A DNA stretch of 64,000 nucleotides from Yuukianura sp. NJ FZ-2021 (taxonomy: Eukaryota). The stretch is from positions 1,550,001 to 1,614,000 of the forward strand of contig CM102284.1 of assembly GCA_046563655.1 (NCBI GenBank), given 5' to 3'. Positions 1 to 53,024 of the stretch are shown in pieces. Numbering within the stretch: the stretch's first letter is position 1; every line of letters begins with the position of its first letter. The position numbers and the translations under genes are program-made. The notes beneath the pieces are model-generated. The model was given only the letters and a program-made list of their open reading frames with translations, had not been told where the DNA came from and did not search any database.

Positions 1-1165
1 ACAGTATTTCATCAACTGATGGACGAGTCACTGCTGCTAGACGGAAGTGTTGCAAAAATGGCGCCAAATTTCGACTCGTTTCAGATTTGGTGGTTTCCCA
101 GTTCTGGCAAAATTGTACTCGGAACCGGGAATTACACGAGTTGTGACACCCCCGGAGAAGCAGTTTCAAATTTTATACCAAACATGCACACTCTCGCAAT
201 TGCTGCCGGCAGCATAGTGCTGGAATTCTCGCAAATACTGGCAAGTACCAGTCTGATACGCAGTATTGAAAAGTTGACTGAACTTTTATTACATTCGGAC
301 GCATTCGGCAAACCGCCGATTTATTCCGAAGATGGACATCATATCACAAATCCCGCAACGGGATATGCTTGGAAGCTGCAGTCGAGTTTGTGTAGAAGCG
401 ACGGCTGGTATAGATGTCCTTGGTTGAATGGTGATTGGTCACTAGGTCCCGAAGAGAGTTCAATGGCCTTTGACCTTTCGGAGTTTAGTGGAGTCATGAA
501 CATGATGTACAGAGTGGTTCAGCAGAATCCATCCTTGTTTCCAGCAATTGGAGTTTACATTAGATTTGCAAAGGCCTCTCCGGCAACAATGGCAATTTCG
601 GCGGGAAGGCCTACTTTCAGCGTCGAGTGGGCTGCGCCCATGCGCCTTGATTCGTTCAATTCTGCCCGCCATGGACTTGGCCCACAGCAGGCAATTCTGC
701 AGGAAATGGTAAATTTTGGCAACAAATTTATAATGCTTTAACAAATCGATTTTTTTTAATTTTCAAAACGCCTTAAACCTGTAGGTGGACAACTTTGGCG
801 GGCGACCGCATTGGGGTAAAAATGGGCAGCATTATTTTTCGGACCAAGTTTTAAGCCGAACAGTTCCGAATAGAAACGAATTCGTTCGTGCTATGCAGAA
901 GTACGATCCAAATGGTTTGTTTTTGAATACTTTTGGAAGGCGCATGCTCGGTGTAGATGACAAACAAGATCGGGATCCCAGAGTAACTCGCTGTGCATTA
1001 CAAGATCATTGCATCTGTGCACATGATAATGACTGTGGGAGGTTCCAAAAGTGCGGCAAAATCAACCAATTTCAAGTATGTTTGGACTTAGATTGGCAGG
1101 ATTTGGCAAGTGACTTAAAAAATTCTGCACAACGTGTGTTACGACAGGTAATCAGCATTCTATAA
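1..1165 (+). CDS. L-gulonolactone oxidase-like FAD oxidoreductase, copy 1 (5' end outside window; exons <1-708, 785-1165)
   Basis: ALO-type C-terminal domain with YIRFAKAS, FGGRPHWGKN and KYDPNGLFLN, and a Cys-rich tail CALQDHCICAHDNDC. GT-AG intron 709-784 joins the two ORFs in frame. Paralogous to the gene at 1721-3608. Confidence 0.8.
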
Positions 1166-1720: not shown

Positions 1721-3608
1721 TTAACCTAAAATTCCCGAAAGGAGTTTCTTAGTGATACAAGCCTTAGTATTTGAATACCCAGCTATGCTGCTACAAACTT
1801 GTCCTGCTGCGCAGTCGCTGTCTTTGGAACAAATACAGTTGTCCAATAGAGCGCAATGTGCTAGTGCTTGTGGGTCGATGTCATTGGCGTCACTGTCACC
1901 TCTAAGTCGATGCCCAAAGTCATTTAGAAAAACACCGTTTGGATCATACTTATTCATCAGATTCAAAAATTCCTGTTTCGCTCCAGCATCCAAATTTAAA
2001 TCCAAATTTTGCCTGTTATGGTAAACAGCTCCAGATTTTCCCCAGTGCGATTTTCCACCATATTTGAGCATCTGTAATTCAAATTTACAAAAATCAAAAC
2101 ATTTTTGGAAAAACATAAAAAAACATCAAAGTTTGCAGCTTTTTTACCATTGTTTGGAGTATTGTTTGGTATGCTGCGAGTCCCGGGGTGGCTTTATCGT
2201 ATAAATCAGGTCTCATTGGCATGTAGAATTCAAAATGGCATGTTTCTTGTTGGTATGCCGCTGACATGTAGGTTTCACTTGGAGCCGAAAAACGCATCAG
2301 AATTCCTTGAACTGGAAACGCCGCAGGGTATTTAGTTATAATGTCCTTCACCGTCTGAACTAATGCCGGTACATGTGAAGTAGCCACAGAAAATTCGTTG
2401 TCAAGTTGGCTCAGCGCTGGAGTTTGTTTCCATGGACACTGCCAGAAGCCAGTATCGTTGCAAATTGGGGCAAACATTTCATGGTAGTAGCCAACAGCAG
2501 GATTTGCAAAAGTTAGCATATTCTGTGTATCGTAGGTGTAGATCGGTGCAAAAGTCGGTACGAGTCGGAATAGCGTTTCATAAGAAAGTAGTTCTATACC
2601 ATGCATAGTTGTGTAGGCTGCATCTGGTAGTCGGAGGTCCTCGGATTCATATGCGGTATTGAGAGCCGTGTCGGCAGCGGTATTAAATACCGAGTTGGTC
2701 GACGGTACGTGATCGTTTGTTATGGCTTCTCCTGGTGTGTCGACATCAACAATTGTCCAGTTAGCCATCACGATTTTTGATAAAGATGGAAACCAGTAGA
2801 GCGACATTTGGTCAGCTTGGCGTACCGTATCGATAAAAGTACCGTCAAAAAGCATCTGATCCGAAACAACGGTATTGTGGCCCTGAACTTTATAGAGCGG
2901 TTCGGTTCGAAGGGTAATGCTGACGACTATTCCGAGAAGACCAAGGTGGACTCGAAACCCGGCCAGGTCAGGGTTACCTTCAACAATAGTCTGAAGGTCA
3001 CCGTTGCCATCGATAATGACTACCGCGATTACGTGTTCTGATATTGAGCTTGGATATTTTATAGAAGAGCCATGCGCGCCTGTTCCAATTGCCCCACCGA
3101 TAGTGATTGCACCATAAGCCGGTGTAGTTTTAAGTCCTCTGCCATTGGATTTTAAAAATTCGGCCAATTCACGAAGTGTGACTCCCGGCTCCACTGTGAC
3201 AGTTTGGTCCGGGTTCATCCCCATGCCAACCATTCCCGTCATGTCCAGTGGAATGCCATTGGTACAGATGACGTCAGTTGCGGAATGGCGGATACCAACA
3301 GCCTTTACAGTCTTACCATTGTTGATGGCAAATCTGACAACTTCTTGAACTTGATCAAGTGACGTTGGTTTAACAAATTCAGAAGCCGGAGTACATACTG
3401 GGCCTTTGTAGTATGGACTGTAGTTCAATGTAGATTGAGGACTACAAAAAAGTTGATTTAAATCATTAATTTTTAGAAAATTTTGAAAATTTCTGATTTA
3501 AAAATTTTGAAATATGAGTTTTGTATTTTCTAAAATGCACTTTTGAAAACGTTACCCCGTGGAACACTGGATGCCTAGCACAGAAAATATGAGGCAGATT
3601 GGCGACAT
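1721..3608 (-). CDS. L-gulonolactone oxidase-like FAD oxidoreductase, copy 2, probably secreted (exons 3608-3556, 3441-2148, 2071-1721)
   Basis: Signal-like MSPICLIFSVLGIQCSTG. FAD-binding PCMH motifs VKAVGIRHS (His at the covalent-FAD position), TVEPGVTL and TIGGAIGTGAHGSS. Also HWGKS, KYDPNGVFLN and CALLDNCICSKDSDC. Canonical splice sites keep the frame. Confidence 0.85.
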
Positions 3609-13648: not shown

Positions 13649-15834
13649 ATGAAGCAACTCATTGTAAGTTTTAGTCGCTAAAAACTAGATTTAGACTAGT
13701 AAGCAAAAGTTCAAAAAAACGATTTCAATTTAAGCGTTCGAGAGATGAAAAATTTCGACAAACTTCCGCTCAAAAATTTCACTTTCTCTTTGAAATCTGA
13801 AAAAAAAATCTGGTCTAAGAGATTTTGGAAAATTTTTGTTTTCTCATTGTTTTTTTTTTTAAAAACTCTTCAGTACGCGTGTGTAAATTTGGAATTCGGG
13901 TTATGCAGATTTTGAGCTCAAGTTTGAATTCGGCTGTTCGGATTTTTTGTGCCTATAGACTTGGACTTCGTTTTCCCCCGTTTTTGTTGAGCTTTTTGAA
14001 ATTCACTTTTTCCGATTTTGTTGAACTTAAAGGAATTCGTTTTTTTCTGATTTTGTTGTGAAAAGTTTGTGATTTGTCTTTTTTTTTCTGATTTTGTCGT
14101 CATTTCTGTAATTTCATTTGTGTAAATAGTTTTGTGATTGTTTTTTAAGCTTTTTCTGACCTGGTTGGTCACAGCACATGCGCAATACCCGGGGACTTCG
14201 TACACAATTGCACAGCCATTGGCAACGCCACAACCAACTTACGGACTCCCCACGCAATCTTCTGGACTAGACCAGCAACTCCTGTTGCTCCCACAGTATT
14301 CACCTATTGCTACAAATGCAATTAGCCAAGGTCAAGCTGACACGCAGTATGCCGCACCAGCCGGCGTTCCGGCTAGCCAGCCATATGCAGTACAAAGTCC
14401 AGTATATGCAGCTCCACCTTCCGTAAGCGTCCAGTACTCCTCACCGTCTGCGCAGTACAGTCAACAATATGGACCACCTCAATTGTCTACTGCACAGCAA
14501 TACGCTGCTCCAGCACCATCACCTCCAGCTCAGCTGTACTCCACGCCTACGGCTTCTACTGCACCACAATACGCTACGCCTGCACCAGCATCACAATATT
14601 CGGCTCCTGCACCAGCATCGCAATATTCGGCTCCTGCAACATCTTCAGCTCAGCAGTACTCTCCAGCACAGCAATATGGCGCACCAGAGGCCTTGCCTGC
14701 TCGACAATATTCTGCACCAGCTACGTCGCAACAATATTCTGCACCAGCATCGTCTCAATCTCAGTATTCTGCACCAGCAACGTCACAATCGCAGTACTCT
14801 GCACCAGCATCATCACAACCGCAGTACTCTGCACCAGCAACATCACAACCGCAGTATTCCGCTCCAGCATCATCGCAATCGCAGTATTCCGCACCAGCAT
14901 CGTCACAATCTCAATACTCTGCACCAGCATCGTCACAATCTCAATACTCTGCACCAGCAACATCACAATCACAGTATTCTGCACCAGCACCTCCCCAATC
15001 GCAATACTCTTCACCAGCTCCGTCACAATCGCAGTATTCTGCCCCAGCACCGTCACAATCGCAGTATTCCGCTCCAGCATCATCACAATCGCAGCAATAT
15101 TCTGCACCAGCCCAACCACAATCGCAGCAGTACTCTGCACCAGCACAAGCACAATCGCAGTATTCCGCTCCAGCCCCTTCACAGCAACAACAATCTAGCA
15201 CACCCGATGTAGCTTCGAGTCCTCAACAGTACAGTAACGGTGGAAATGAGCCAGCTCGAAGCAGCGATGCAGGAGCCATTATACACAAACATGTCTACGG
15301 TAAGCAATGAAATCAAAAAAATCGTTGAATTTTTTATGGCTTTCATAAAAAAAATTGAATAAGTTCCTAAAAAGACTTAAAATTTTTTGCTTTTCAGTTC
15401 ATGTCCCACCTCCAGAAATTCCTGAAGTTCGGAAAGCCAAATCGACCGCCGCCCCACCCCCACCGGAGAAACACTACAAAATCCTGTTCATCAAAGCACC
15501 AGAACCTCCTGCCCCTGAACTCCAAGACTACCAACTTCCAGCCGAACCGGAACAGAAGACACTCGTTTATGTTTTAGTCAAGAAACCCGAACCGGGGGCC
15601 CAGGTTCGAATCCCCACGCCTGCACCGACGAAACCCTCCAAACCGGAAGTGTACTTTATCCGTTACAAGAGTCCAACCACCGCACTTCCACCAGTTTCTC
15701 AGTACGGAACTCCCCAAGTTCGGGCAGAACAGGATCAAGCCAGCGGTTATTCGCAGGGTCAAGCAAGTGCACAAGGACAGAGTCAAGCCAATGCAGGGTC
15801 ATCGTCACCCCAAACCGGTGGATACTCAGGCTAA
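13649..15834 (+). CDS. Tweedle-family (DUF243) cuticular protein with a long Ser/Gln/Ala/Pro/Tyr repeat region (exons 13649-13663, 14150-15299, 15398-15834)
   Basis: Spliced signal peptide MKQLI/LFLTWLVTAHAQ. The four DUF243 blocks are present: HKHVYVHVPPPE, KHYKILFIKAP, KTLVYVLVKKP and PSKPEVYFIRYK. Confidence 0.9.
14705..15180 (+). repeat. Coding 30-bp tandem repeat (QYSAPA[S/T/P]SQ[S/P]), about 15-16 copies
   Basis: Unit CAGTATTCTGCACCAGCATCGTCACAATCG with variants, seen directly. Confidence 0.9.
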
Positions 15835-15913: not shown

Positions 15914-17230
15914 TTATTTTTTGTCACTTAACCACTTCCGGTAATCCTCCACTTCAACACCTTCCCAGTGTCCTGCGTTGCGGGATTTAAATGTTGTCAA
16001 AATTTTTTGGTGCAAAGTACGGTCAATTTCGTGTGGAAAGAGCGTGGCAATTTTCAAATTGGTTTCCAATATGTTTTTGTTGGGAATGCTCACTAATGTC
16101 GTCGCAATTGGTTCCGGAGGGTGAAGACTGTACTGAAGTGAGGCCGTTTCTAGTGTTGATCCACTGGCAGCAGCCAACTCTGCAGCAATTCTAGCAGCCT
16201 CCTTTGTTTCATCGGATGCTGCATGCCATGCCGGGGGACCTTGACTGGACAAAAGGCCCATGGCAAGGGGAGCTGCATTTATAATCCCGATTTTGTTTTG
16301 AGCAAAGAACTGAGTTGAGTCGTACAGTGAGTCGTCGTGGAAGTTGTAGCGAGCGTATGACAACACAGTACTTATCTGTCCAGCAGGAACTTTTTCGATA
16401 ATTTGTTTTAACAGGGTCAAATCGTAGCCAGTGATTCCAATAAACCTGGCCTTTCCAGCTTTCACGACTGACTCCAAAGCAGGAATGGTTTCGTTTATCA
16501 AAATGTTAAAATCGTGACAAAACTCGGCATCGTGTACTTGGATAATGTCGACGAAGGGAAGGCGTAACCTTTCAAGACTGGTTTCAACATTTTTCAGTAC
16601 CGCTGAATAGCTAAAGTCAAATCGACCATCCCAATCCGGCGTAAAATTTCGTCCGACCTTGGTTCCAATGTAGTATGCTTGTCGTGGAACTCCCACAAGG
16701 GCTTCTCCAATGATACTATAAAAAAAATTTCAATGAATTCAATCACTTACTACTATGCTAGAAGTTCACAATTAATGGAAACGTAATCTTACCTCTCCGA
16801 CTCGCCGTACCAAGGAGACGTATCCAGGAAATTTATGCCACACTTGATACTCTCACGGATAGTATCAACGGCTTCTTGTCGTCCGACGTCTCTGAAATTA
16901 TGTCACATTAAAGTTGGTTGACAATTCCGCGTGATTCGGCATTACAAAATCGCGTGAAACAATGAATTTGACCTACCGATAAGCTCTTAAGTTAAGCTAT
17001 AGTTGTACACAGTGTGAAAACACAGGCACTAACCCATAGAATCCTCCTAAGGCTGATCCACCATATGACACAGTCGATACGTCCATCCCTGTCTCACCCA
17101 ATGGTCGGTACCTCAAATTCGGTTTCCATTTGTCGCCAGGTAGACTCCGATCGTCCGAATCTTCACAGTTTTCACGTTCTCCATGGAATGCTTCAACATA
17201 GTTGGCGTTCGGTAGACCCCTTATTGACAT
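15914..17230 (-). CDS. Aldo-keto reductase, L-galactose dehydrogenase / D-arabinose 1-dehydrogenase-like (exons 17230-17034, 16891-16793, 16715-15914)
   Basis: Motifs YRPLGETGMDVSTVSYGGSALG, GINFLDTSPWYG, YYIGTKVGR, FDFS, DIIQVHDAEF, ETIPALE..KAGKARFIGITGY and HWEGVEV. The AKR catalytic D/Y/K/H tetrad is present. Confidence 0.85.
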
Positions 17231-17574
17231 TGTTGCCAGTAAAACTAGTGATGATATGGAAAATTTTGAATTGATGAATTTTGAATTGAAAATTCCTAGA
17301 GTTAACTCTAATGGCCAAGACTAAAAGTCTGAAGTGCTGTCTGAAGTGCCTGTAACTTTGTCCAGAAACTCCAGAACTGACTGGAAACAACAAAAACAAT
17401 TCTCCCACCTCCTTCTCACTCGATCCCACCACTGGGAAATGCTGGGAAGTTACTGGGGAAAAAACTACCCCTTTCACTGTCTGAAGTTACTGTCTGAAGT
17501 GGACCCACTATTCCACTGACTCGGCGGAAATCGCATTCGTATGCGGTGGAATTTTGGCTAGTAGCAAGTTGCGA

Positions 17575-18014
17575 GATGCTGGGAAGTCACAAAAATGAGT
17601 TCCCAGCATCTGGTTCATTAGTTCCCGCTACTGGGAAATGGTGGGAAGTGACTAGGGAAGAAACTACCTCTTTATTGTGGGGGGTGGGGGGCAAAAGTCT
17701 GAAGTTGGAATAACTTTGGCTAGGAAGGTGGGAAATGCTGGGAAATCACAAAACTGAGTTCCCAGCATCTGGTTCATTACTTCCCACCACTGGGAAATGG
17801 TGGGAAGCGACTAGGGAAGAAACTACCTCTTTATTGTGGGGGGTGGGGGCAAAAGCCTGAAGTTGTAATAACTTTTTCTAGGAAGGTGGGAAATGCTGGG
17901 AAATCACAAAACTGAGTTCCCAGCATCTGGTTCATTAGTTCCCGCTACTGGGAAATGGTGGGAAGTGACCAGGAAAGAAACTACCTCTTTAATTTGGGGG
18001 TGGGAGGAAAAGTC
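17575..18014 (-). repeat. Left-arm 157-bp tandem array (about 3 copies, inverted relative to the right arm)
   Basis: Reverse complement of the unit at 19285-21245, e.g. ATGCTGGGAAATCACAAAACTGAGTTCCCAGCATCTGGTTCATTA recurring. Confidence 0.9.
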
Positions 18015-19121
18015 CCTTTAGAAGAATTCCAGTATATGAAGTGCTGCAGGATGCAGAGAACGATTTCTGGGCAAGTATTGCTTGTAACAATACGCCCTAC
18101 ATGAATGGAATGCCTTACCAGCCGGAAGAGGAAGTAGGATTGCAAATGAATCAAGCGCATTTGGGAAGTACAGTGAGGCCCAGCTAAAAGAGTACACCCA
18201 AAAATCAGTAATTTGTTTGATTTCACAACTATGGAGGGCAAACGAGTGAAATAACGCAATTTTCGAATTAAGTCCGTCATATTGGAAACTGAAGTTTCAA
18301 AATTTGAGTTAGTTTTCTCCTCGTGTTTAACGGAGTTTTAACTCGTTTCTATGGAAACAAAATAGAGGTGTACTCTTTTAGCTGGGCCTCACTGTATAAT
18401 CTCGGACTACAACGTTCCCGGAGTAACACACCCCTACATGTATGCTGGGGTGAATAATTCATTCGGTCAGTGGCACACAGAAGACTGCGAGCTGTACTCC
18501 GTTAATCAGTGTATTGGCGAAGACGGGAAAAAAATGTGGTGAGTAGAACTAACTAAACTATCATTGTTTTAACGAATTTATTTTAAAATTTTGTGCTGAA
18601 AACAAAGGTACGCAATCAGTCGCGATTGCAAATCTGCTTTTGAACGTGAAATGCAGGAGTTATTTCAGCAAGACTTCCATAGTTGTCATGCTTTCATTCG
18701 CCATAAAACAATTGTCACGTCACCAATTTTCCTGAAAAAAAAGAAAATCAAGTTTTACAAAACGGTGCAAACCACTGGGGAGATAATCGTTACACGACCC
18801 AACGGATACCACCAAATCATAAACCTTAACAACACCTTAAATTTGGCGGTCAACTTCGCGCCAACCAGTTGGATTTCCCACGGCATTCGGGCGTCGCACT
18901 GCCAAGTACACTGCAAGTATGTGGGGTAAGGTTTAATATTTTTATAAACGAATACGTATACTTATACTTGAGTTTACATGTATGTTTACTTCTGTTACTT
19001 TTTTAAAAGTCACAACCCTCGGTTTCCGATGAATGATTTCGTACTGCACAAGGACAGGAAGTTTACGCAGAAGCTGCAAAACTTGGATATTTTAATTGAA
19101 ACTATAATTAATTGTATTTAA
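18014..19121 (+). pseudogene. KDM4/JMJD2-like JmjC histone demethylase domain, 5'-truncated and MITE-interrupted (segments ~18014-18170 + 18397-18538, 18608-18916, 19010-19121; about 240 codons)
   Basis: Manual translation: ..LQDAENDFWASIACNNTPYMNG..MNQAHLGSIISDYNVPGVTHPYMYAGVNNSFGQWHTEDCELYSVNQCIGEDGKKMW/YAISRDCKSAFEREMQELFQQDFHSCHAFIRHKTIVTSPIFLKKKKIKFYKTVQTTGEIIVTRPNGYHQIINLNNTLNLAVNFAPTSWISHGIRASHCQVHCN/HNPRFPMNDFV... This is colinear with KDM4A motifs GVNTPYLY, WHTEDMDLYSIN, CEAFLRHK, GYHAGFN and KISMDVFV. Two GT-AG introns (18539-18607, 18917-19009) keep the frame. Confidence 0.88.
18171..18394. mobile_element. Tc1/mariner-type MITE (224 bp) with TA target-site duplication
   Basis: Perfect 28-bp TIR CAGTGAGGCCCAGCTAAAAGAGTACACC / GGTGTACTCTTTTAGCTGGGCCTCACTG; TA at 18169-18170 and 18395-18396. 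Confidence 0.92.
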
Positions 19122-19284
19122 TTATGCTTAAGTAATAATTACCTCATCAAATATTACAACAAAAATAATTAAATTTATTAATATAATTAAATTAATAACA
19201 ATTAAATTAGTTGTCATTAAAATTGGATTTTTGTTTCTTTGAAAAATCCCATTGTAGTAGTTTTTTTTTTTAAATTCAGGTTTA

Positions 19285-21245
19285 CTTCCCAGGATTTCCC
19301 ATTTCTCAGTGGTTGGAACTAATGAAGGAGATGCTGGGAACTCAGTTTTGTGATTTCCCAGCATTTCCCACTTCTCTGGCCAAAGTTATTACAACTACAG
19401 ACAGCAGTCCCCCCCACAATAAAGAGGTAGTTTCCTCCCTAGTCACTTCCCACCATTTCCCAGTAGCGGGAACTAATGAACCAGATGCTGGGAACTCAGT
19501 TTTGTGATTTCCCAGCATTTCCCACCTTCCTAGCCTAAGTTATTCCAACTTCAGACTTTTGCCCCCACCCCCCACCATAAAGAGGTAGTTTCTTCCCTAG
19601 TCACTTCCAAAAATTTCCCAGTGGTGGGAAGTAATGAGCTGGATGCTAGGAACTCAGTTTTGTTGTTTTACAGCATTTCCCACCTTTCTAGCCAAAGTTA
19701 TTCCAACTTCAGAGTTTTGCCCCCACCCCCACAATAAAGAGGTAGTTTCTTCCCTAGTCACTTCCCACCATTTCCCAGTAGTGGGAACTAATGAACCAGA
19801 TGCTGGGAACTCAGTTTTGCAATTTCCCAGCATTTCCCACTTCTCTGGCCAAAGTTATTCCAACTTCAGAGTTTTCCTCCCACCCCCAAAATAAAGAGGT
19901 AGTTTCTTCCCTAGTCACTTCCCACCATTTCCCAGTAGTGGGAACTAATGAACCAGATGCTGGGAACTCAGTTTTGCAATTTCCCAGCATTTCCCACTTC
20001 TCTGGCCAAAGTTATTCCAACTTCAGAGTTTTCCTCCCACCCCCAAAATAAAGAGGTAGTTTCTCCCCTAGTCACTTCCCACCATTTCCCAGTAGTGGGA
20101 AGTAATGAGCTACATGCTGGGAACTCAGTTTTGTGATTTCCCAGCATTTCCCACCTTTCTAGCCAAAGTTATTCCAACTTCAGAGTTTTCCTCCCACCCC
20201 CAAAATAAAGAGGTAGTTTCTCCCCTAGTCACTTCCCACCATTTCCCAGTAGTGGGAAGTAATGAGCTAGATGCTGGGAACTCATTTTTGTCATTTCCCA
20301 GCATTTCCCACTTCTCTGGCCAAAGTTATTCCAACTTCAGAGTTTTGCCCCCACCCCCAAAATAAAGAGGTAGTTTCTCCCCTAGTCACTTCCCACCATT
20401 TCCCAGTAGTGGGAAGTAATGAGCTAGATGCTGGGAACTCAGTTTTGTGATTTCCCAGCATTTCCCACCTTTCTAGCCAAAGTTATTCCAACTTCAGAGT
20501 TTTGCCACCACCCCCAAAATAAAGAGGTAGTTTCTCCCCTAGTCACTTCCCACCATTTCCCAGTAGTGGGAAGTAATGAGCTACATGCTGGGAACTCAGT
20601 TTTGTGATTTCCCAGCATTTCCCACCTTTCTAGCCAAAGTTATTCCAACTTCAGAGTTTTGCCCCCACCCCCACAATAAAGAGGTAGTTTCTTCCCTAGT
20701 CACTTCCCACCATTTCCCAGTAGCGGGAACTAATGAACCAGATGCTGGGAACTCAGTTTTGCAATTTCCCAGCATTTCCCACTTCTCTGGCCAAAGTTAT
20801 TCCAACTTCAGAGTTTTCCTCCCACCCCCAAAATAAAGAGGTAGTTTCTCCCCTAGTCACTTCCCACCATTTCCCAGTAGTGGGAAGTAATGAGCTAGAT
20901 GCTGGGAACTCAGTTTTGTGATTTCCCAGCATTTCCCACCTTTCTAGCCAAAGTTATTCCAACTTCAGAGTTTTGCCCCCACCCCCCACAATAAAGATGT
21001 AGTTTCTCCTCTAGTCACTTCCCACCATTTCCCAGTAGTGGGAAGTAATGAGCTAGATGCTGGGAACTCAGTTTTGTGATTTCCCAGCATTTCCCACCTT
21101 TCTAGCCAATGTTATTCCCACTTCAGACTTCCACCCACCCACAAAATAAAGAGGTAGTTTTTTCCCCAGACACTTCCCACCATTTCCCAGTGTTGGGAAA
21201 TGATGAACAAGATGCTGGGAACTCAGTTTTGTCATTTCCTGGTAT
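19285..21245 (+). repeat. Right-arm 157-bp tandem array (about 12-13 copies)
   Basis: Equivalent positions at 19634, 19791, 19948, 20105 ... 20576, 20733 are spaced by multiples of 157 bp. Units are near-identical and contain internal palindromes (ATGCTGGGAA..TTCCCAGCAT). Confidence 0.95.
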
Positions 21246-21952
21246 TTCGCACATTCCTACTAGCGAAAATTTTAACCAATGCGATTGCGATTTCTGACGA
21301 ATCAGCGGAATAGTGGGTCCACTTCAGACAGCAACTTCAGACAGCTAAAGGGGTAGTTTTTTCCCCAGTGACTTCCCAGCATTTCCCAGTGGTGGGATCG
21401 AGTGAGAAGGAGGTGGGAGAATTGTTTTTGTGGTTTCCAGTCAGTTCTGGAGTTCCTGGACAAAGTTAGGGGCACTTCAGACAGCACTTCAGACTTTTAG
21501 TCTTGGCCACTCTAATTATTAATCCTATTAGGTAGTAGTTTACGTGGTCTCCCTAAAAGACGTAATCTCGGATTCTGCTGATTTTCGCACACTATTAAAT
21601 CTTAAATTGGTGTGAAATCTGCCGGCATGCGACTCGAAAATCTATTACGTAATGTAGTATTGTGTTTTACCGCTGGATTGCGTGTTGTGCGTTGAGGAAG
21701 TTCTAAGCAAACGAGAATTAAAGGGTACTTTATTAGTATAGTAGCATTGGTACAATTTGTTTGCATTTTTATTCTTGATTCAACGATTACATGCGCGGTT
21801 TAATACTGAGTTAATTTTGAACAAAAAGAAACAGAAGAATAACCTTAAATTTTTTGCTTAAGATAATTTAATTTCTGTTGACATAAGTTGGGTTTACGTA
21901 ATTGTATTGATGACGTCACGTGGTAGTCAGACTTATATTCAAATTTAGAGTT

Positions 21953-28814: not shown

Positions 28815-29629
28815 TGTGGAAAAAAATACTTTTGGTTTTTTAAATTGCAAAATTTTGTGATCAAATGAAAACTCAATTGTGTGCTTGGGATTTTAATGGG
28901 CATCGAATTTGATATTTATAGTCTGTTAATTAATGTGGCGGTCAAATTCTTTACAATTTCTCCTCTTTTGTTCAAAATTTTCTCTTTTGTTTTCAAAATT
29001 ACCAAAAAGTCAAAGTTAACGATGTGCATGTACTTTTCTTAAATAAAATTTAAATAGGTTAGGTAATTTAACCTAGAAAAAAGCTCTATTTTTGTTACGA
29101 TAATGAGCACACTCACTTTGTGTGCAAAAAAACGTTCCTCTTTGTGTATACCTATTAATTTTCATAAATTTGACTACCTTGTTGAAAAAGTATGAGTAAG
29201 CATCACCTGTTCATTTTTTTTCAAACCTGGATCCTTTAGTATATTTACTAAATTAAAACATTGAATTGATGTACTGACTAAATTTAATTGACAAAGTTTA
29301 GCCTTGGAACTGCTTTTTGTGGCTATTTGACCACATGTGTTAAGTTTTGATTAAATTCTCATGACTGAAATTTTTTTGAAACCAAGATACGTTATTGTGC
29401 TAACTTCGTATCACTTCTTTTTACAAGTGTTTGTTAAATATTTCTTGTAGCTTTTAAGAGGCTCTTGAGAAGTAAAAGATTAGATTGGAATTCAAGGTCA
29501 ATATTTTTGTAATAAGAATGACGGCACGTGATGTATGACAAATTTGAAAAACAAAGTTAGTACAATTTAGTCCATTGCAAGTTTAGTCGTATGAAAGTAT
29601 TTTAAGTGAAAGATATTATTGTCACAGCC

Positions 29630-31363
29630 ATGGCTCCAAGTGTAAGCCCCTACATCTCTGAAATTACTACCAAAGTTCAAAAAATTTTAGTTGAAGAATT
29701 AAAATTTGAAAATGTGGAAAACGTTAGTTTAAAGTTTCCAGAAGAACTAAAAGGAGAACACTTTGCAACGGAAACTGTCTACGTACAAGTCAAATTCAAT
29801 GGCGGGGAAACTCAAAATTTGTTTCTCAAAATTCCGTCAGACAACCAAGCTCACCAAAAACTAATGAGAGAAATCAGGGTCATGGAGAAAGAAAGTACAT
29901 TCTATAATGAATTTTTGCCTGCTGCACAAAAGTTTTGTGCGGAAAGAGGGTAAAATGCTTGTTTGAAATTTTTAGTCAACATGTTCGTAAAGACTTTTAC
30001 AAAATTTTTCAAAAGTATATCTAACAAACTCCATTTTCGTTTGCAATTTTAAAATATTTAGATGTGGAAACATCTTGGACTTTTTCCCGCCATGCTTGTA
30101 CGCTGACAACGACATGGTACTTTTGAAAAACCTTGTGTTGGACGACGGATACGAAATGTTGTCAAAGTTGGAACAGCAAGACTATGAATCAGCAAAGTAA
30201 TAAGCATTTTATAGTCTTAAGTATATAATTTATGACTCTAATTAGTAATTATTATAATTAGTTATAAATGTGGTATTTACGGCAATATAAATCGCACAAA
30301 TTGCTACATACACAAAAACGTTTTCATATTTTGTTAAAAATTTTTTAGGTTGGTGCTAATGAATTTGGCAAAGTTTCATGCCGTATCGTACACAATGATC
30401 CAAGAATCAAATTTGGATGAATTTAAACAACGTTGGGCGGTGACTGCTGTTGATTGTCTGACGAAACACGAAATGATGGAATCACTTTTCAGCAATGGTC
30501 CGAAATTCTGTTTGGATATATTGAAAGTAATATCTAAAAATATAAAATATATAAATATATACATATACATACTACATATTTGAAGATACTTTGGTCAGAT
30601 ATGTATTGTAATATGTAATGGCATAATTTCAAATTGGTGTTATAGGTGAACCCCATAGATGGAAGTGCAGAAGCCGTGCGTTATTTGAGCGAATACACTA
30701 AAACTGTTACCGGTAAACTTGGAAAACTAGCTGAAGATTCTCTGCAAGCAAACTTGGTCACCCTTGGACACGGAGACTGTTGGAACAACAACATGCTTTT
30801 CAAAAAAGACTCAAAAACCGGACAAATTTTGAAAAACGTTTTGGTGGATCTTCAGGTGAAATTTCGGTTTCAATACATTACAGTCATTTCAAAATTCGAT
30901 TCCAAATTTTAGTCATCAAAGACTTTCGTTGTTTACCTTTCAGTGCACCAAACTAGGTTCCCCAGTGTTAGACATTGCAAATTTTTTATTCAGCAGTGTA
31001 AAATCCGGAGTTAGAAGGGAGTCTCACACCAAATTCACTCACCATTACTTTGCAACGTTTCAAAAAACGTTAGAATTGTTGCAATGTCCATGTACAATTG
31101 GATTTGAGCAGTTTATGGATGACTACCGCAAGTTCTGTGAACATGGATTTATGATGGGAATGCTGTGTCTTACTGCCATAGGAGCCATGGAGGGAATGGA
31201 TTTTGATGTAATGGGAACAGAAAATGAAGCTGACAGTGCAAACGTCTTTAACCGCCGAATTGAAAAGTGGATTGCAGCTAATCCCGAAAAAGGAAAAGAA
31301 ATTGCAGTTGAAACTGTTTTGCTCGTAGAGGAATACAAACGCCTAACTGCACAAACGACTTGA
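29630..31363 (+). CDS. Ecdysteroid-kinase-like (EcKL/CHK, DUF227) protein, copy 1, 5 exons
   Basis: Motifs GEHFAT, LFLKIP, EKESTFYNEFLP, LAKFHAVSY, Brenner motif HGDCWNNNMLFK, LVDLQ and GSPVLDIANFLFSS. GT-AG introns. Confidence 0.9.
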
Positions 31364-31925
31364 CAAGTAGACATTTTTTGACAAAATTTGACTTTTACTC
31401 TGCAATTGTGCATAATACTAATTTTTGGATACAGATGGAGATTAAGTAGAAATCAAGGTCAAGGTCACACTTTAAAGTTAGAAATAAATATACCTGTTGT
31501 AAATCCAAATCTGAAAATACTAACGGGAAAGAAATTGCAATTGAAATTGTTTTACCTGTAGAAGAATTTAAAAATTTGTTAGCAGATGAACTTCGAAAAG
31601 ATTAAATTTTTGAAAGGACTGCAGTTTTTGTTTCTTTGTTGTATTTTTTGATCGGGTGGTTACCTTTTTTTCTGCCAACGCATGACCTTCGGAAAGACAT
31701 CGATTAGATTGAGGGGTTACATGCAATGTAACCCAACCTCAAGTCAACCAGAACTTCCTCTGCCGCCGTTTCAACACACAACATCAGTCGGTCTCCCACC
31801 TTTCAACTAGCTTTCAGAACTCAAGGTTAAGCACTACAAAAAAATACTTGATATAAAGTGTTTGAAATGAATTAGTACGGTTCCGTTTGTTCAGTGGAGT
31901 GAAGCTTATTTTATTTATAAGCATC

Positions 31926-33496
31926 ATGGTTATTGAATCCCAAATTTTAAAACAAATTACTGAAATTTTAGTCGAGAAATTAAAATTTGAGAAAGTAGAG
32001 AATGTTAGTGTAAGAGTTCCGCAGGAACTTAAGGGAGAGCACTTCGCGACACAGGCTGTGTATGTTCAAATCCACTTCACTGGCGGGAAAATTCAAAATT
32101 TGTTTCTCAAAATCCCTTCGGACAATGAAAGTCATCGTAAGGTCATGAGTGAACTCAAGGTCATGGAGAAGGAATGCGCATTCTACAATGAATTTTTACC
32201 TGCAGCGCAACAGTTTTGCTCTGAAAGAGGGTATAACAGTGGAACCTTAACGTTTTGAATTTTTTTTTAAATTTTGAAAGTTTCATTCTTAAAATTTTAA
32301 ACTACTTAGGTGTGAGAACATCCTGGATTTTTTGGCGCCTTGTTTGTATGCTGATGACATCATGATACTTTTAAAGAATCTTGTTTTGGACGAAGGATTT
32401 GAAATGCTACCGAAATCAGAAGGACAAAGCGTTCAAGCAGTAAAGTAATTTTTAAAAAAAAATGAAAAAATTTCTAAAATATAGTTTGCATTTTGATTAA
32501 AATTTTAAGTCTCGCGCTATCAAGTTTGGCTAAACTCCATGCCGTATCGTACGCAATGATCCAGGAATTGAATTTGGAAAACTTCAAGCACCGTTACGCG
32601 CTGACCACTGTTGACCTCATGACAGAACACGATTTTATAAACTCCATTAATAAGGGTGCGCCGCAGTTCTGTCTGGATGTATTAAAAGTAATAAGTATAT
32701 AATTGTAAATATTACAGTTTAAGTTAATTAATTAAATTAATTAATTAATTACACTTACATTGTTTGTGGCAGACTAGCCCTGTTGACGGCAGCGAAGAAG
32801 CTGTACGTTATTTGACAGAATACAGCAAAACAGTGGGTGGTAAATTGCTAGCTGAAAAGTCTTTACAAACCAACCTGGTTACACTCACGCACGGAGATTT
32901 TTGGAACAACAACATGCTGTTCAAAAAAGATCCACAAAATGGACAACTTTTGAAAAACGTTTTGGTTGATTTTCAGGTAACTTCGAAAGTTTGATTTTAA
33001 AGTTTCCTTCAAAATTTTAATTTTATTTAAACAAAAACAATTTCATTCTGCTTTTCGTTTTTTCACAGGCAACGAAATTGGCATCTACCGTAATAGACAT
33101 TACAAATTTTTTGTAAAAAAAAATTTTTTGTTCAGCAGTGTAAAACCCAGTGTTCGACGAGAGTTTCATTCAAAATTTCTTAAGAATTATTTTGCTCAAT
33201 TTCACAAAACGTTGGAAATTTTGAACTGTTCATGTACAATTCCATTTGAAGAGTTTATGAAGGACTATCGTATGTGCTGTGAACATGGATTCTTAGTAGC
33301 TCTAGTATTTTTGACTGCAACAGGAGCTTTGGATGGCATGTATGAGGATGTGGCAGCGAAAGAAGACCATGAAGGTGGCTCCGTTTTTATTCACAGAGTT
33401 CAGAAGTGGATTCATGAAAATCCAGAAAAGGGAAGAGAAGTTGCAACTGAAATTGTTCTACTTGTAGAAGAGTACAAAAGTTTAGGTGCAACATGA
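31926..33496 (+). pseudogene. EcKL kinase copy 2, disrupted by a 17-bp insertion (33114-33130) giving TAA plus a frameshift in the last exon
   Basis: Same exon structure as copy 1, with HGDFWNNNMLFK. The last exon from 33069 reads ATKLASTVIDITNFL*, and homology resumes in another frame at FSSVKPSVRRE. Confidence 0.75.
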
Positions 33497-35500: not shown

Positions 35501-38500
35501 ATGGCAGGTAACTTTTTCAAATTTACTTCTATTTAAACTATTTGAAAATACGTTCGTTTGTTTGAAATCGTTTGCATTTTTCAAAATCAAATTTGTTTGC
35601 AGATCGCGAGTGTTGGGTGACATCAGCGACGGATGATAACGAAGCTTGGAAAGCTTTGGTGCTGGCAAGGTCAATTCGAAATTCGATGACAACGAGGACA
35701 ATCATAGTTGCAATTTCTGAACATGTTTCAAATGAAATGAGGTGAGGTTGAGTTTTCTTAAGTTTTAGAATTAATTAATTTCCAGCCAAACTTGAGTAAT
35801 GAGACAGTGTTAAAAAAGTACTTTTTATATAATTTTTTTTAATTTAAAAATTTTTAGGCTATATAATACTTTTTTTTATAACAATTGAATCTCAGAACGC
35901 TGTTACGCCGAGTATTTGAAAACGTTCTGCTCTACGAGTCCAGTGAGGTAGGAAACAAGCGACATCGGTTACTTTGGCTTTGGAACATCCAATATTGGAC
36001 CAAGTGTGTCTATGTCCACCCTATGTCTTACGTAAGGCAAAGCTAGGCCTTAAGCCTTAAGTGAACTTTTTTTTAGTGCATTTAGCTATTAAAACCGGTA
36101 ATATAACTGCAGTTTGCCCTTTGTACATATTTCATGTGCGTACAGATGCTCGAAAACGCGGACGAACTGTTTTCGTATCCACCATTCTCAACGAGAGTAG
36201 AATGTACTGCGGACGGTGGAATGAAGATTTCATCGAAGATCATAATTTTCAAACCAAATCTGCAGGATTTTGACCAACTTGTAGAACTGAGCGAGTCAAA
36301 TTTACAGGGTAAGACTCAGCTGTGTGCCAGGTCGTAAGGGCTACTACAATCAGGGCTACTGCAAAAGGAGCTAATTCAACATGAGCTACTTTCAGTAATG
36401 GCATGTGTTTAGCGTGGACAATTTTCCTTTCCTCCATTATTTTGCATTTACATTTTCAAAATTTTGAAAACTTTACTTCCAGCCCACTTACGAATGGGTT
36501 TGAAAAAGCTTTGCTACAAAAGCATAAGAGTGGAAAGATAATATTGTTTTGTGCAGCTATAGGCTTTGTGTACTTGTAGCCACTATCGCATGAGCTCCTT
36601 AGCAGTAGACTTGATTTTTTGTAGCCCTATTTGAGTAGCCGTTACTGGAGTAGCGGTTTTTGATGGTTCCATGTATTTTGGCCAAAAAGAGAAATAATCA
36701 AAGAGGAAAAGGTCAGAAAAAACGGCCAAAAGGAAAAAAAAGCTCTGTCATTTCACTTTTGGCCAATATTTTTTGGCCATTTCACCTGCTACGCTTTTTG
36801 ATTTAGCCCATATGACAAATTGAACCACTCAACTGCTTTTAGCATGAATAAATACGTTGTTGTGTTTGTTTTTGGTCACAGGCACTTTTGAGGATATTTT
36901 GGAAAGTAAATTTTCTGACGCACTGAGAGATCTTAAACATCAAGTTGTAGCGTCACATGCATCAAAGCTTTTTAAAATGGAAAACGGGACATGGTAAGTT
37001 TTAGTAAATACAAAACAGAGAAAAAGGGTTTAAACAGGGAGTTTGGGTTAAAAATTATTTATGGAATTCATAGAATTTAGGAAGTCCCGCCTCTTTCCAC
37101 CCCTGCCCCTGCAACAAATTTTGTTACGGTTACCGTAATTAGGTTAGGTTAGGTGCAAGTCAAATCTGTGAAGTCACTTTCCAAACGTTTGTCGTTTATG
37201 GAACTTATGAGTCGTGTTTCGAAAATTAAAATTCTGTAAATCCCAATCAAAGGATTTTAGTTTTTCTTAGACTACAAGGGAAATAAGCCTAATTGTTTTG
37301 AAACCAAAAATATCCCTAACCAAGGGAAAAAAGTGGCGCTTAAGCCAGCTTCACACCGAACGCAAAAAAGTTTAGATGATTGTTTGCGTTAAAATTAGCG
37401 GTTGGTGTGTGAACTGGGCTTTACATTGTGATGAAAATCGCTTTCGTCCTTGCAAGTCCCTGCAAAAATGGTTTCAAAAATTTTGTTGAAATCAAGCCTT
37501 ATTTCCCCTCTAGGCTAGACAAAAACGCAGAAAATTACCTTGACAGGTCTCTGATCCCAATAGTTTGAAAAGTGACGTCACTACCCGCCATAAATTGTAT
37601 ACTTCCCACAAATTCTATAAATTATAACGCAAACTCCCTCACATAAACTATGAAAATCAGGTATGGCAGCGTATCGCCCAAAAGTGCGTATGAGGAAGTG
37701 ATGCAAAACTGGATGACTACATTTGAAACAGAAGTTATTCCACAAGTTCTTCAACTGAAAGTAAACAATGTTTGCTTTTAAAGAGTTCAGTCTGCTTCTT
37801 CGAATAATTGTTAACATATGTTAAGCAATGAGCTTTTGTTTTTAGAATGACCGCACGAGAGAGCAGCTTTTGCATTCCGCAAGGAAACACTACTTCACAC
37901 CAACTGTAAATGGACATTCTAAAGTATCATATACTGAAACGAAAGACGCGCAAGATTTGGAAATGGGAATTGCAGTCGTGGGCATGAGTTGCAGATTTCC
38001 AGAAGTAAACGATGCAGATGAACTTTGGGAATTGCTCATGAGTGGCCGTGATCCGATTGGGCCGTTCCCACCCGATCGACCACGCCCACTAAATGACGAC
38101 ACGGAAAATTTTAAGGCGGGATTTTTGAAATGCGCAGTAGATGAATTTGACGCTAATTTTTTTGGAATTAGTCCTCGTGAGGCGCCGTTTATAGATCCTC
38201 AGCAACGTTTTCTCCTGGAAGTTGTCTGGGAGTGTCTGGAAAACGCAGCTATAAATCCAGTGGACTTACGCGGAACAAACACTGGTGTTTTCGTTGGGAT
38301 TACAGGACAAGATTACTTAAGTTTGTTTCCGAAGTACGGACTAGATGGAATTGATTACAATCATGTCTACGTGGGAAATGCCTTTAGTGCTACAGCAGCT
38401 CGCGTTTCACATTGCCTTGGACTTCGTGGACCCAATATTGCTGTCGAGTAAAGCAATTTCGTAAATATCTAATTGAACGTCAAACTAAAGAAGTATTTGA

Positions 38501-41500
38501 TTTAGGTCGGGCTGTTCAAGCAGTGCAAGTGCCGTGCATCTTGCATGTCAAAGCCTACAAAAAGGCGAATCAGAACTGGCAATTGTAGCGGGGGTGAACT
38601 TAATCCTTGATTGTTTAAGCCCTCTCGGGGGAGGAAGACTGTTGGACTCACTTGTGTTTGCAAAGGATTTCAAATGCAAGACCTTCGATGAAAGGTATTA
38701 AGTCGCACTTTTTAATTTTATATTTTGTGTATTTAAGATAGCTACTTGATGCATCGACTCTGTCTCTCTGTGTGGCTGTCTGACGGGCCGTTGGCAGTTA
38801 TTATCTCAATAACTAGTATAATATGTAATCTGTAAAGTAATACCTAGTGTTTACTATTCAATATCATCTCGGTGGGTCATCTTTTTCCGGATCAACCGTA
38901 AAGATCAGCCTGTTTTATCATGGGTAATATGAAAAATGGAATGTACAAAAGTTGTTTATCTTGCAAACAATTTATTAGTACACGCGACGTTAAGTGGCCG
39001 CTTTCCTAGTCAAAGGTCAACATTCTTTTTTGCATCATTTTTAACGTCTACTCATTATAGTCTACGATTATTTACCATTGTAAGCTGTTAGGACGCCAGT
39101 GCATCTTTCCCTACTTTTTTACACTCGGGTTTATCATTATTTGACTTTGTGTGTATTTTCAGTGCTGATGGTTACGTGCGAGCAGAAGGTTGTGCAGCAA
39201 TTGTGCTTCGACGGTTGGAAGGCACCACTCGTGCAAACGATAACGTCGTCGGTATTATCCGGGGAACTGCGTTAAATAATAATGGAGCCGAGGAAAGCTT
39301 TGGAGCTCCAAATTGTACTGCATTAGAACTAGCATTTCGAGAAGCATTGAACGGTGCAGGAGTTAAGCCTAGCAGCGTCAGCTTAGTCGAAACGCATGGA
39401 ACAGGAACCGCAGTTGGAGGTAAGTACTTCTGTGAACTTTACAAATTAAGGCAACCCAAATTTAAAATTAAATTTCTTGATTATTTTAGGTTACTAACAC
39501 AATTTTTGCCACTTATTGACTTGATTTTGTAGATCCCATAGAAATGAGTGCAGTGGAACATGTTTATTCTGAAGGCAGATCCGCTACTAACCCACTTCTT
39601 GTGACTTCGGTAAAAACAAACATAGGGCATTCCGAAGCCTGTGCTGGTTTAGCGGGACTAATCAAAGTTCTCCTCTGCTTCAAACACAAACAAGTTCCAC
39701 CGAATCGACATTTTCAAAAACTCAATCCCAAAATCAACCTACAAAAAATTCCGGCACTCATCCCCATAGAAACCACTGAATGGAAAGCCAAAACCCGAGT
39801 AGCCGCGGTTTGTTCGTACGGCATGAGTGGAACAAACGTCCACATAATCCTGCAAGAGCCACCGCTCAACAAAAATTTTACCGAATTCAAAGACCAGGCA
39901 CAAATGATTGGGATTTCTGCAAAATCAGAGGCGGCATTGGAAGCTTTGTGTCAAAAATACATTTCATATTTTGAAAAAAATCCGAAACTTGCGTTGGGCG
40001 ACATCGCATTAACTCTGAACACAGGAAGAGCAAATTTTCCTCACCGGATTGCCCTTGTAGCAAAAAACACGAAACAACTTATTGAAAAATTGAAGCAGAA
40101 AGCGTACATCAAAGGGAAAACGCTCGTGCAAAAACCGAAGCTGATTTTTCTGTTCACAGGTCAAGGGTCACAGTATTTTGGAATGGCCAAAACCATATAT
40201 CAACATTCTCCAGTGTTCCGAACAGCCCTTGAGCAATGTGAAACTCTGTTTAAGAAGCACTTGACATGTTCATTGAAGGAAGTTGTGTGGGGAGATGCTG
40301 CTTTATTGGAAAAAACCATTTACTGCCAGCCTGCAATATTTTCAGTTCAGTTTGCACTGGTTCAGTTATGGCACTCTTTTGGAATTTACCCTGACATCGT
40401 TCTTGGGCACAGCGTAGGTGAATTCTGCGCATCAGTTTGCGCAGGCGTCTTGTCATTGGAAGATGGAATGAAACTTGTTGCCGGCAGAAGCAAACTTTTG
40501 AATAGTATTGAAGGCGGGAAAATGATGGTAGTAAAAACGTCTCCGGAAAACCTGCGCAGCTTGATTCCAAAATTTCTCGAATCGAATTTTAATTCTTACA
40601 TTGACATTGCCGCTGAGAATTCGGATGAAGAAGTCGTCGTTTCAGGGACAGATACAAATATGTTAGAATTTGCAAGTTTTTGCGAGCAGCATGGACTGAA
40701 AGTCCAAATGATCTTGGCCTCTCATGCGTTTCACTCTCGTCAAATGGAATCAATATTACCAGACTACGAAATGGAAACAGCCACAATTCGACAGCAAAAA
40801 CTGAAATGTCGATACATATCTGGAACGTTAGCGCGGGAATTGAAACAAGAAGAATTTAATTCCTGTTATTGGTCGCAACACTTACGAAATACTGTGACAT
40901 TCCGTGACGCCATTGATGTCGCTTCTAACCTATTCGCCGAGGACAGAAAAGTTTTTGTCGAAATCGGAACCAAACCGACTCTGTTAAGCATGGCAATGGC
41001 AAATCTGCCCAACTCTACAAATGACGTATTTTGCCCTTCATTGCGCCCAAACGAAGATGATTTGGCTTCCGTCTTGAACTCTTTGTCGAAAATGTACGTG
41101 GCTGGAGTTGAGGTTTCATGGAAAAATTGGTGTTGTGACGAAAACACCAAATTGAATCTTCCAACATATCCATTTCAACGTCAAAAATTTTGGTTTCAAC
41201 GGGACCAGATTGACTTTGTAGAACTTCCACGTCAACTTGGTTCACACCCAACGCTAGGACGGCGTCTACCAACCGGCGGTTTGGAAATCATTTTTGATAA
41301 AATTTTATCTCCGAAGATACTACCATACGCCCAAGATTACTGCATTGCAGAAAGCGTAATTTTACTCGGAGCTGTGTACTGCGAAACCATTTTGGCCGCT
41401 GGTCGTCACGTACTGCAAAACAAAGACGCTCCTGTCCAATTCTCTGTGCAGAATTTTGTAATCGAGGCTCAACTGGAGTTGGACAAATCTGTCCACATGC

Positions 41501-50389: not shown

Positions 50390-50816
50390 AGTTATAAATT
50401 TTCTACATCTTTTTGCAACGTGAATTACCTATACTTTGAAAAAAGTCGATATTTGTTAACCTAAGTAAAATTTGAGCTGAATGTCGAAAAACGTATACGA
50501 AGAACCGACGACGGAAATAACTAAACTGGAATTGTTGGTTTTGAGCAATTTTTAGTTTTCCTGTTTTTACATTTAAAAACGTATTAACCTACAGTTACGT
50601 TTAGTTTTCGTTCAAGCTAATGTTACGTTTTACTTTCGCTCTACGAGTATTTGTGAAGTTCTCTTTTTAAGGTGTGGAGCTGACAAGGGAACTAGATTAG
50701 ATAAAAAAGGAAGTTGGAGTCCACAGCACACTTTAAAACAAGCTGCATAAACCAAACTTGAGAAACAGAAGTACAAACTCTTTTGCTGTGGTGTGAAATT
50801 TTAAGTGAAAACGAGC

Positions 50817-52444: not shown

Positions 52445-53024
52445 ATTTTGAAGAAGTACGGTAGTAATAACTTTGTTAAATAAATTTGAAACGTCTGTTA
52501 CGTTTGTTGTATCTACTAGATTTAATATTTTGTATGCCTGATTTAAAAAAGTTAACAACGCAAATACAATTCCTTGCAAAAGTGTATCAACTAAGATGAG
52601 CTTAGCTTCATTATATAATTAGCTTCAATATAATAGAAACCGATGGAAATAGTGTTTGACATAATTTGGGCCATTTGGAACAGTAGGACTGTCGGTTTAA
52701 AAAGTATTTTTGTTTTTCTTAACTTTTATTTTCAGTTTCAGTTGTTGATTCCTATCGCATATCATATGTTCATGGATACTCCCTTTTTAGGCACAGTTCC
52801 TAGAAAACTTTTCCGATTCATTTTTGAAAATCAAATAATCAACTTTCAAATCTTCTCCTTACTTCAGCAGATTCAGAAACGCAACGAATATATCGTTTTC
52901 CAAAATTCGAGTTTTTTAAACAATGCATTATAAAAGCAGAAAAGCTGCCCATAATGACAAAAATCCTGCCTTTGACAGAATTCAGAAAATATTAAAAAAA
53001 AAGTTGTTACAAAAAGGCTTTATA

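Follow-up and report, generated by a model that had tools for sequence, protein, structure and literature searches.

A foldback-type DNA transposon of 4196 bp is found at positions 17313–21508 of a 64,000 nucleotide (nt) stretch of Yuukianura sp. NJ FZ-2021 (GenBank assembly GCA_046563655.1, contig CM102284.1, positions 1,550,001 to 1,614,000 of the forward strand). The whole stretch is termed the window here and all coordinates refer to it. Between its inverted arms the element carries 1.25 kb of cargo on the + strand, which encodes part of a KDM4-type JmjC protein. Genic, non-transposon sequence (KDM4-type exons and introns) thus lies between both transposon ends, as is characteristic of Pack-TIR elements (TIR, terminal inverted repeat). 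The element is quite probably a non-autonomous foldback Pack-TIR with a DNA-level part of a short divergent KDM4-type JmjC gene, the introns of which are retained and which has decayed in this copy.

An earlier reading of the window, made from its letters alone (the sequence-only reading), had described a foldback transposon with exact TIRs, an 8-bp target-site duplication and inverted 157-bp arrays, and with a KDM4-like JmjC segment as its sole cargo. All of these features are recovered at the limits then given, and the JmjC/KDM4 identity of the cargo stands. Five public DNA runs contain part of the cargo; four are from one sample of one study and one is from a second study under another organism label. 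Contigs of four of the five runs (X1–X4, representing both studies) were compared over positions 17950–19350. Only distinct contig forms and bridges were counted, and contig depths were not used as copy numbers.

Ends, arms and arrays of the element

The terminal 36 nt form a perfect inverted repeat of the opposite end (2 matches, with 0 expected in 100 shuffles). The 8-bp sequence ACTCTAAT, read directly, immediately flanks both ends in identical form, at 17305–17312 on the left and 21509–21516 on the right; by chance, 8 nt would match at a given position with a probability of 1.5e-5. From one copy, a reading of the limits with TG..CA ends and a 6-bp duplication is also possible. In either reading a duplication flanks the whole unit, as in the foldback class. 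An 8-bp duplication is compatible with P, hAT, Merlin or Mutator-like (MULE) elements.

Each end consists of a unique terminal domain of approximately 250 bp, at 17313–17561 on the left (+ strand) and 21260–21508 on the right (− strand), and the two domains, 17313–17561 and 21508–21260, share 92% identity in inverted orientation. The left domain also contains a 13-nt repeat at 17476–17500 and short subterminal repeats of the CTGTCTGAAGT type. Inside these domains lie two arrays that are mutually inverted. The left array (17562–18014, + strand) consists of 2.9 copies of a 158-bp unit, and the right array (19266–21239, − strand) of a degenerate unit at 19266–19298 followed by 12.4 copies of 157 bp at 19299–21239. 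The arms, 17313–18014 and 19266–21508, are therefore long terminal inverted repeats made up of tandem subrepeats, which is the structure of the foldback class, and they are very unequal (0.7 kb left versus 2.2 kb right). Many array-like contigs from the public runs continue as array, past 18014 for example, at points at which the window sequence changes to cargo (loose ends at 17991, 18014 and 19299).

None of the open reading frames (ORFs) within the element resembles a transposase. The element is therefore non-autonomous, and its mobilisation must be in trans, by another enzyme. There are no array copies outside the element and no second copy of the element within the 64-kb window.

The JmjC coding region and its decay in this copy

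The boundaries of the cargo coincide exactly with the inner ends of the arrays. At the left junction two nucleotides, TC (18013–18014), are common to the array and to the cargo homology, an overlap too short to be informative. The degenerate array unit obscures the right junction. The cargo begins 9 nt inside an intron, directly abutting the left array, and the intron remnant at 18015–18021 ends in an AG acceptor; related contigs match from 18013 and are pyrimidine-rich before that point.

The coding region starts at 18022, behind the acceptor, and all of its parts are on the + strand. The first part of exon A (18022–18170) represents the KDM4-like region upstream of the JmjC core, and it aligns to KDM4-like proteins from residue 1 of the reconstructed peptide. 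The second part (18397–18538) contains the start of JmjC, with WHTED (Fe-ligand His and Glu) and YSVN, as seen in the Pfam and structure matches and in the alignment. Exon B (18608–18916) carries the JmjC core, including the C..H zinc ligands, the GYH Fe ligand and a CxxxC pair. Exon C (19010–19121) ends in a TAA stop at 19119–19121 in the frame of the window, and in a TGA at 19097–19099 in the frame implied by variant contigs. Intron 1 (18539–18607) and intron 2 (18917–19009) are both GT..AG introns, and a single reading frame is maintained across them. An AT-rich tail (19123–19265) follows exon C. The sequence-only reading had given the same two introns and a spliced JmjC region, and in these respects it was correct; its start near 18400 was not, as coding sequence begins at 18022 and exon A is split by a nested insertion.

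Exon B matches the Pfam JmjC domain (PF02373) with an E-value of 4.3e-15 and 56.6 bits, where the cut-off is 24. The 3′ part of exon A gives 2.6e-4 and 21.9 bits, which is under the cut-off. The closest solved structures to the cargo are KDM4D, KDM4A, KDM4C and KDM4B (KDM4D, E-value = 1.5e-15), and these come before JMJ14 and KDM5. With the nested insertion and one TA removed the frame is continuous and yields a reconstructed peptide of 236 residues. Residues 1–211 align to KDM4-like proteins with 34–38% identity and E-values down to 2e-37.

The very unequal arms could also point to a local composite without capture, in which a resident JmjC gene was hit by two independent foldback half-elements or was rearranged in place. 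Ectopic recombination and rearrangements are reported for foldback-like elements such as Galileo. Such an origin is nonetheless extremely unlikely here. The element as a whole is enclosed by the 8-bp duplication and has perfect inverted repeats at its outer ends; the cargo ends exactly where the arrays end on their inner sides, and a diverged form described below has the identical cargo/array junction. The insertion is in a short intergenic stretch between unrelated neighbours, a reductase gene and a Pecanex-like ORF, and a tblastn search of the peptide against the window shows no other JmjC exons, upstream ones included, in the flanks (no further match at E<1).

The insertion in exon A, at 18171–18396, is a Tc1/mariner-style miniature inverted-repeat transposable element (MITE). 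It measures 226 bp (224 bp plus the second TA of its duplication), has perfect terminal inverted repeats of 28 nt and is flanked by a TA duplication. Contigs from all four runs bridge 18167 to 18394 without it. MITE-like contigs with many different flanks are present in all four runs as well (loose ends at 18169–18173 and 18390–18400). Neither a second MITE copy nor a second cargo copy is found within the 64-kb window.

The JmjN domain and a start codon are absent from the window copy, as had been noted from the letters alone; the cargo begins just before the region that precedes JmjC. The 3′ end of the coding region also differs from that of other forms. Every variant contig that covers exon C has four extra letters at 19045–19048, in two different forms, and the window copy is thus the odd one out. 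The end of its reading frame is probably shifted by a 4-nt deficit, as judged from this comparison. The frame implied by the variants reads QGQEVYAEAAKLGYFN and then a stop. It is taken as ancestral on grounds of parsimony, since two variant forms both carry the four letters, and of a weak motif match: it places Gln and Tyr (Q..Y) where relatives have Q..Y, an agreement that is suggestive only. Short-peptide BLAST of both exon C tails gave nothing significant (best E-values 1.7–2.0). Because of the intron-internal start, the missing JmjN and start codon, the MITE in exon A and the 4-nt deficit in exon C, the window copy is a pseudogene and cannot make a demethylase.

Residue conservation was assessed at 53 positions that are at least 90% conserved among 70 relatives. 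The reconstructed peptide retains 38 of the 53 near-invariant residues, with 15 changed. Y26, H76, E78, N86, K95 and H165 all match columns of this kind. On the basis of KDM4A we take the Fe ligands to be His, Glu and His, and the 2-oxoglutarate ligands to be Tyr, Asn and Lys. In the zinc site, Cys and His are likewise unchanged, but the Cys pair has the spacing CxxxC, in contrast to CxC in 70 of 70 relatives. Among the substitutions, a Phe found in 59/59 relatives is Gly in the window copy and an Asn found in 70/70 is Thr. Residue 69 is Asn in the window copy and Tyr or Phe in variants (Phe when two listed changes are read together); in eight aligned relatives it is Trp in six, Tyr in one and Gln in one. 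The earlier statement that the key residues are all retained is valid for the Fe and 2-oxoglutarate ligands, but not for every conserved residue.

In amino acid sequence the cargo segment is very divergent. A HMMER search against 1.84 billion representative sequences gave 1607 relatives at E≤0.001, none with more than 45% identity. Among the best full-length matches are short KDM4 paralogues of arthropods, one from Hyalella azteca (441 amino acids, aa) and one from the pea aphid (434 aa), both annotated as probable lysine-specific demethylase 4B and without PHD or Tudor domains; the remaining best full-length matches are fungal, oomycete and metagenomic proteins. The 70 nearest relatives show JmjC in all 70, JmjN in 42 and PHD-like fingers in 24 by Pfam scan, and a transposase domain in none. 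Two short metagenomic ORFs, P0002 and P0004, with 41–43% identity, have the unusual GYHQ motif in common with the cargo and begin at the same exon boundary.

Short divergent KDM4 paralogues, such as those of Hyalella and the pea aphid, therefore occur as ordinary genes in other arthropods, and the high divergence of the cargo requires no long residence in a transposon. The sequence-only reading had argued from this divergence, together with the intact catalytic residues, to a long-resident accessory gene, a conclusion that divergence of this degree does not compel.

A word-index search for longer relatives of exon B gave 53 candidates, none at E≤0.001. A metagenome scan, the query for which was an alignment of exon B with its two nearest short relatives, gave 590 stretches that match the pattern and one confirmed locus (L001, 43% identity). 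Positions 762–1301 of L001 are a decayed P0004-like JmjC with in-frame stops, no WHTED region and no arrays, unlike the element. The top-scoring relative by HMMER, P0001 of the whitefly Bemisia tabaci (1604 aa), is a protein model made up of 15 near-identical tandem partial JmjC repeats, which reflect either tandem amplification of a JmjC fragment or an error in the gene model.

Related forms of the cargo and coding constraint

The cargo exists in at least three sequence forms. In X1, at 18519–18668, one exact contig and two different variant contigs are present. Related forms are found in all four runs compared, from two studies.

At least one of these forms is less truncated upstream than the window copy. 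In X3 and X4 the contigs without the MITE show 271 letters that are unlike the array and then match from 18013, and X2 has similar loose ends. The last 30 of the 271 letters are AT- and pyrimidine-rich, as in a natural intron end with its polypyrimidine tract. A 27-nt piece of the upstream flank of the variant form is not found anywhere in the window, even if up to 3 mismatches are allowed. The form with non-array upstream sequence is seen in both studies, in contigs of 683–721 nt, a length that fits a free-standing gene and a longer foldback cargo equally. The window copy is therefore a deletion derivative, as the sequence-only reading had guessed.

At least one other form is joined to the right array of the foldback element at the same point, in one study only. 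This diverged contig, found in X1, X2 and X4, extends from exon B across exon C and connects 19122 with 19266, with 8 other letters in place of the 143-nt AT-rich tail before the right array. Its stop is followed by only about 23 nt before the array begins. X3 has an exact contig across the AT-rich tail into the array. From the shared junction it follows that there is more than one form of the chimera. In some forms, exon B has one inserted letter at 18734. At position 18046 the window has G and every contig of all four runs has C, a synonymous change; the G is either an assembly error or a private variant.

These forms suggest a course of events. A foldback element would have acquired a segment of a KDM4-type gene in a single event of template switching or gap repair, with the 2-nt microhomology at the left junction. 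The chimera would then have been copied to more than one place, and the window copy would later have lost its upstream part and gained the MITE and the 4-nt deletion. The cargo in the window would by now be an inert pseudogene fragment with no role in the mobility of the element.

The differences among forms weigh against this account. Of 116 differences, 40 are listed, and 37 of these were used, with three inside the MITE left out, so that all counts refer to a sample. Exon positions show 17 differences in 631 and intron positions 17 in 162 (8 in the 69 nt of intron 1 and 9 in the 93 nt of intron 2), that is, an approximately fourfold greater density in introns (Fisher p = 8e-5). The other three of the 37, located past the 4-nt gap in exon C, were left unclassified. 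At the listed sites, divergence among forms is approximately 3% in exons and 10% in introns. Eight of the 17 exon changes are synonymous, where the expected share is 0.20 (p = 0.01), and the ratio of nonsynonymous to synonymous change per site (pN/pS) is approximately 0.28. Because of this difference in density and the pN/pS value, at least one lineage must have been a working gene for much of the divergence, be it free-standing or foldback-borne, between which the contigs do not distinguish. If the constrained lineages are foldback-borne, the description of the cargo as inert is true of the window copy only. In addition, no clear non-transposon parental gene is seen among the contig forms. 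The selection proposed in the sequence-only reading is thus sustained in part: there is coding constraint among the listed differences, but nothing shows an accessory gene of a transposon family or an anti-silencing system.

This constraint would also be expected if the JmjC gene were maintained by a foldback family. Longer copies would then encode a complete KDM4-type demethylase under selection, which serves either the element, by removal of histone H3 lysine 9 (H3K9) methylation from its own arrays as an anti-silencing function, or the host, as a new gene family of the kind proposed for Ssk-FB4 of Drosophila, and the window copy would be a decayed derivative. Along with the conserved exons and the pN/pS of approximately 0.3, such a family would agree with the cargo/right-array junction shared by at least one other form, with forms free of the MITE that reach at least 271 nt further upstream to a natural intron end, with the retained Fe and 2-oxoglutarate ligands and with the presence of forms in runs under two organism labels. 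DNA transposons with another 2-oxoglutarate dioxygenase that acts on a silencing mark, TET/JBP, are reported from fungi (PMC12730594).

We consider a family-maintained gene unlikely, however. No full-length copy, promoter or JmjN exon is seen among the contigs, one variant has only about 23 nt between its stop and the array, and some forms have the one-letter insertion in exon B. Fifteen of the 53 near-invariant positions are changed, among them the Phe of 59/59 and the Asn of 70/70 relatives and the CxC spacing. None of the 70 relatives is linked to a transposase domain, and the constraint signal could come from a host parental gene among the contigs. A springtail foldback family with an intact KDM4-type demethylase in its longer copies, under purifying selection while mobile, is accordingly a doubtful proposition, whether the protein were an eraser of H3K9 methylation that protects the arrays from heterochromatin or belonged to a host gene family of recent origin that a transposon has spread. 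For the family, the anti-silencing hypothesis retains a small but real chance of being correct because of the longer forms, the constraint signal and the junction held in common.

The cargo loop is approximately 95% identical to other genomic forms and lies between long inverted arrays, and from this a function as RNA can be imagined. Read-through or hairpin transcripts would give rise to small RNAs that match the parental JmjC gene, and silencing of the element would be coupled to demethylase dosage. An epigenetic conflict of this kind has been described for plant Pack-type elements and is proposed for maize (bioRxiv 10.1101/777037). The cargo is situated in the loop, however, outside of the double-stranded part, and such a role is very unlikely. 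Capture of a gene segment by the foldback element, followed by decay in the window copy, is preferred over these alternatives.

Insertion site and comparison with known systems

The element is situated in a short intergenic stretch, in which about 600 nt separate its right end from a Pecanex-like ORF. On the left, a reductase gene at 15935–17230 (− strand) encodes an aldo/keto reductase similar to L-galactose dehydrogenase, and its likely start codon is about 80–110 nt from the left end of the element. The element may thus be located in the promoter or 5′ untranslated region (UTR) of this gene. The best named relatives of the reductase are from the springtails Allacma fusca (56%) and Orchesella (50–52%), which by itself points to a springtail or a close relative as the host.

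Several other genes are found in the window. Two gulonolactone/arabinonolactone-oxidase-like genes adjoin the reductase, at 1–1165 (+ strand, assigned from the ORF list) and 1721–3497 (− strand, with FAD_binding_4 and ALO by Pfam scan); together with the reductase this looks like an ascorbate-pathway neighbourhood. A cuticle-type gene at 14138–15834 (+ strand) combines a DUF243 domain (Tweedle-type) with a long region of SQYSAPA-like repeats. A large type I polyketide/fatty-acid-synthase-like gene at 37846–48692 (+ strand) shows ketosynthase (KS), acyltransferase (AT), dehydratase (DH), methyltransferase, enoylreductase (ER) and ketoreductase (KR) domains, and it is flanked by ecdysteroid-kinase-like genes at about 29606–33496 and at 50805–52444. 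At 52920–63780 (+ strand) there are four tandem intron-free ORFs of 734–756 aa which are clearly paralogous; the first of these gives no Pfam match at E≤0.001.

Tetris is reportedly a foldback-like DNA transposon. Tm1 is a Mutator/Foldback element of root-knot nematodes (PMC3169594). The element in the window shares with FB of Drosophila, Galileo (P superfamily), Tm1 and Tetris long composite TIRs of tandem subrepeats, unequal arms and a short unique terminal domain. Target duplications in this class measure 7–10 bp, and many copies are non-autonomous, in line with the 8 bp and the non-autonomous state here. The 157/158-bp unit and the termini match none of the four, as far as they could be compared.

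The closest precedent is the Pack-TIR family Ssk-FB4 of Drosophila melanogaster (PMC8277862, Tan et al. 2021, Nat Commun), a transcribed and translated chimera in which the Foldback element FB4 captured the Ssk gene and which has spread to three loci with different 9–10-bp duplications. Foldback elements have thus been described before as carriers of captured host genes. In both cases a host-type gene with introns occupies the loop between long, internally repetitive inverted arms, the 3′ UTR is shortened and more than one form or locus of the chimera is known. In the same account Ssk is nearly whole and includes its upstream region, while the cargo here is 5′-truncated, disrupted by a MITE and probably frameshifted. 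The target duplication is 8 bp here versus 9–10 bp. The parental gene of Ssk-FB4 is known, but none is clear here among the contig forms. The cargo of the window element is derived from a chromatin enzyme, and divergence among its forms is older than that described for Ssk-FB4.

The cargo resembles KDM4/JMJD2 proteins, above all KDM4D and the short arthropod forms, in its JmjC signature, its Fe and 2-oxoglutarate ligands and its zinc Cys and His. It differs from them in an identity of 34–45%, in the absence of JmjN, in the 15 changed positions of 53, in CxxxC for CxC and in being a broken gene.

VANC of the Arabidopsis VANDAL elements is a transposon-encoded anti-silencing factor (PMC5735166, PMC10398659), and fungal DNA transposons encode TET/JBP dioxygenases (PMC12730594). 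The likeness to these systems is one of concept only: a protein that removes or blocks a silencing mark, and tandem repeats within the element. In the present case the cargo gene of the window copy is broken, and no intact gene between foldback arms is seen among the contig forms. Of the open-access papers that were searched, none describes a transposon with a JmjC gene, and none deals with foldback elements of springtails.

The window element is a clean and datable example of gene capture by a foldback transposon outside of Drosophila, in a springtail-like hexapod, with nested decay by truncation, MITE insertion and frameshift. It adds to the few animal Pack-TIR cases. The coding constraint between forms makes the question of an intact foldback-borne demethylase worth pursuing genome-wide. 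Should the longer forms be intact genes inside foldback elements, they would be a direct animal counterpart of plant VANC and of the fungal TET/JBP transposons.

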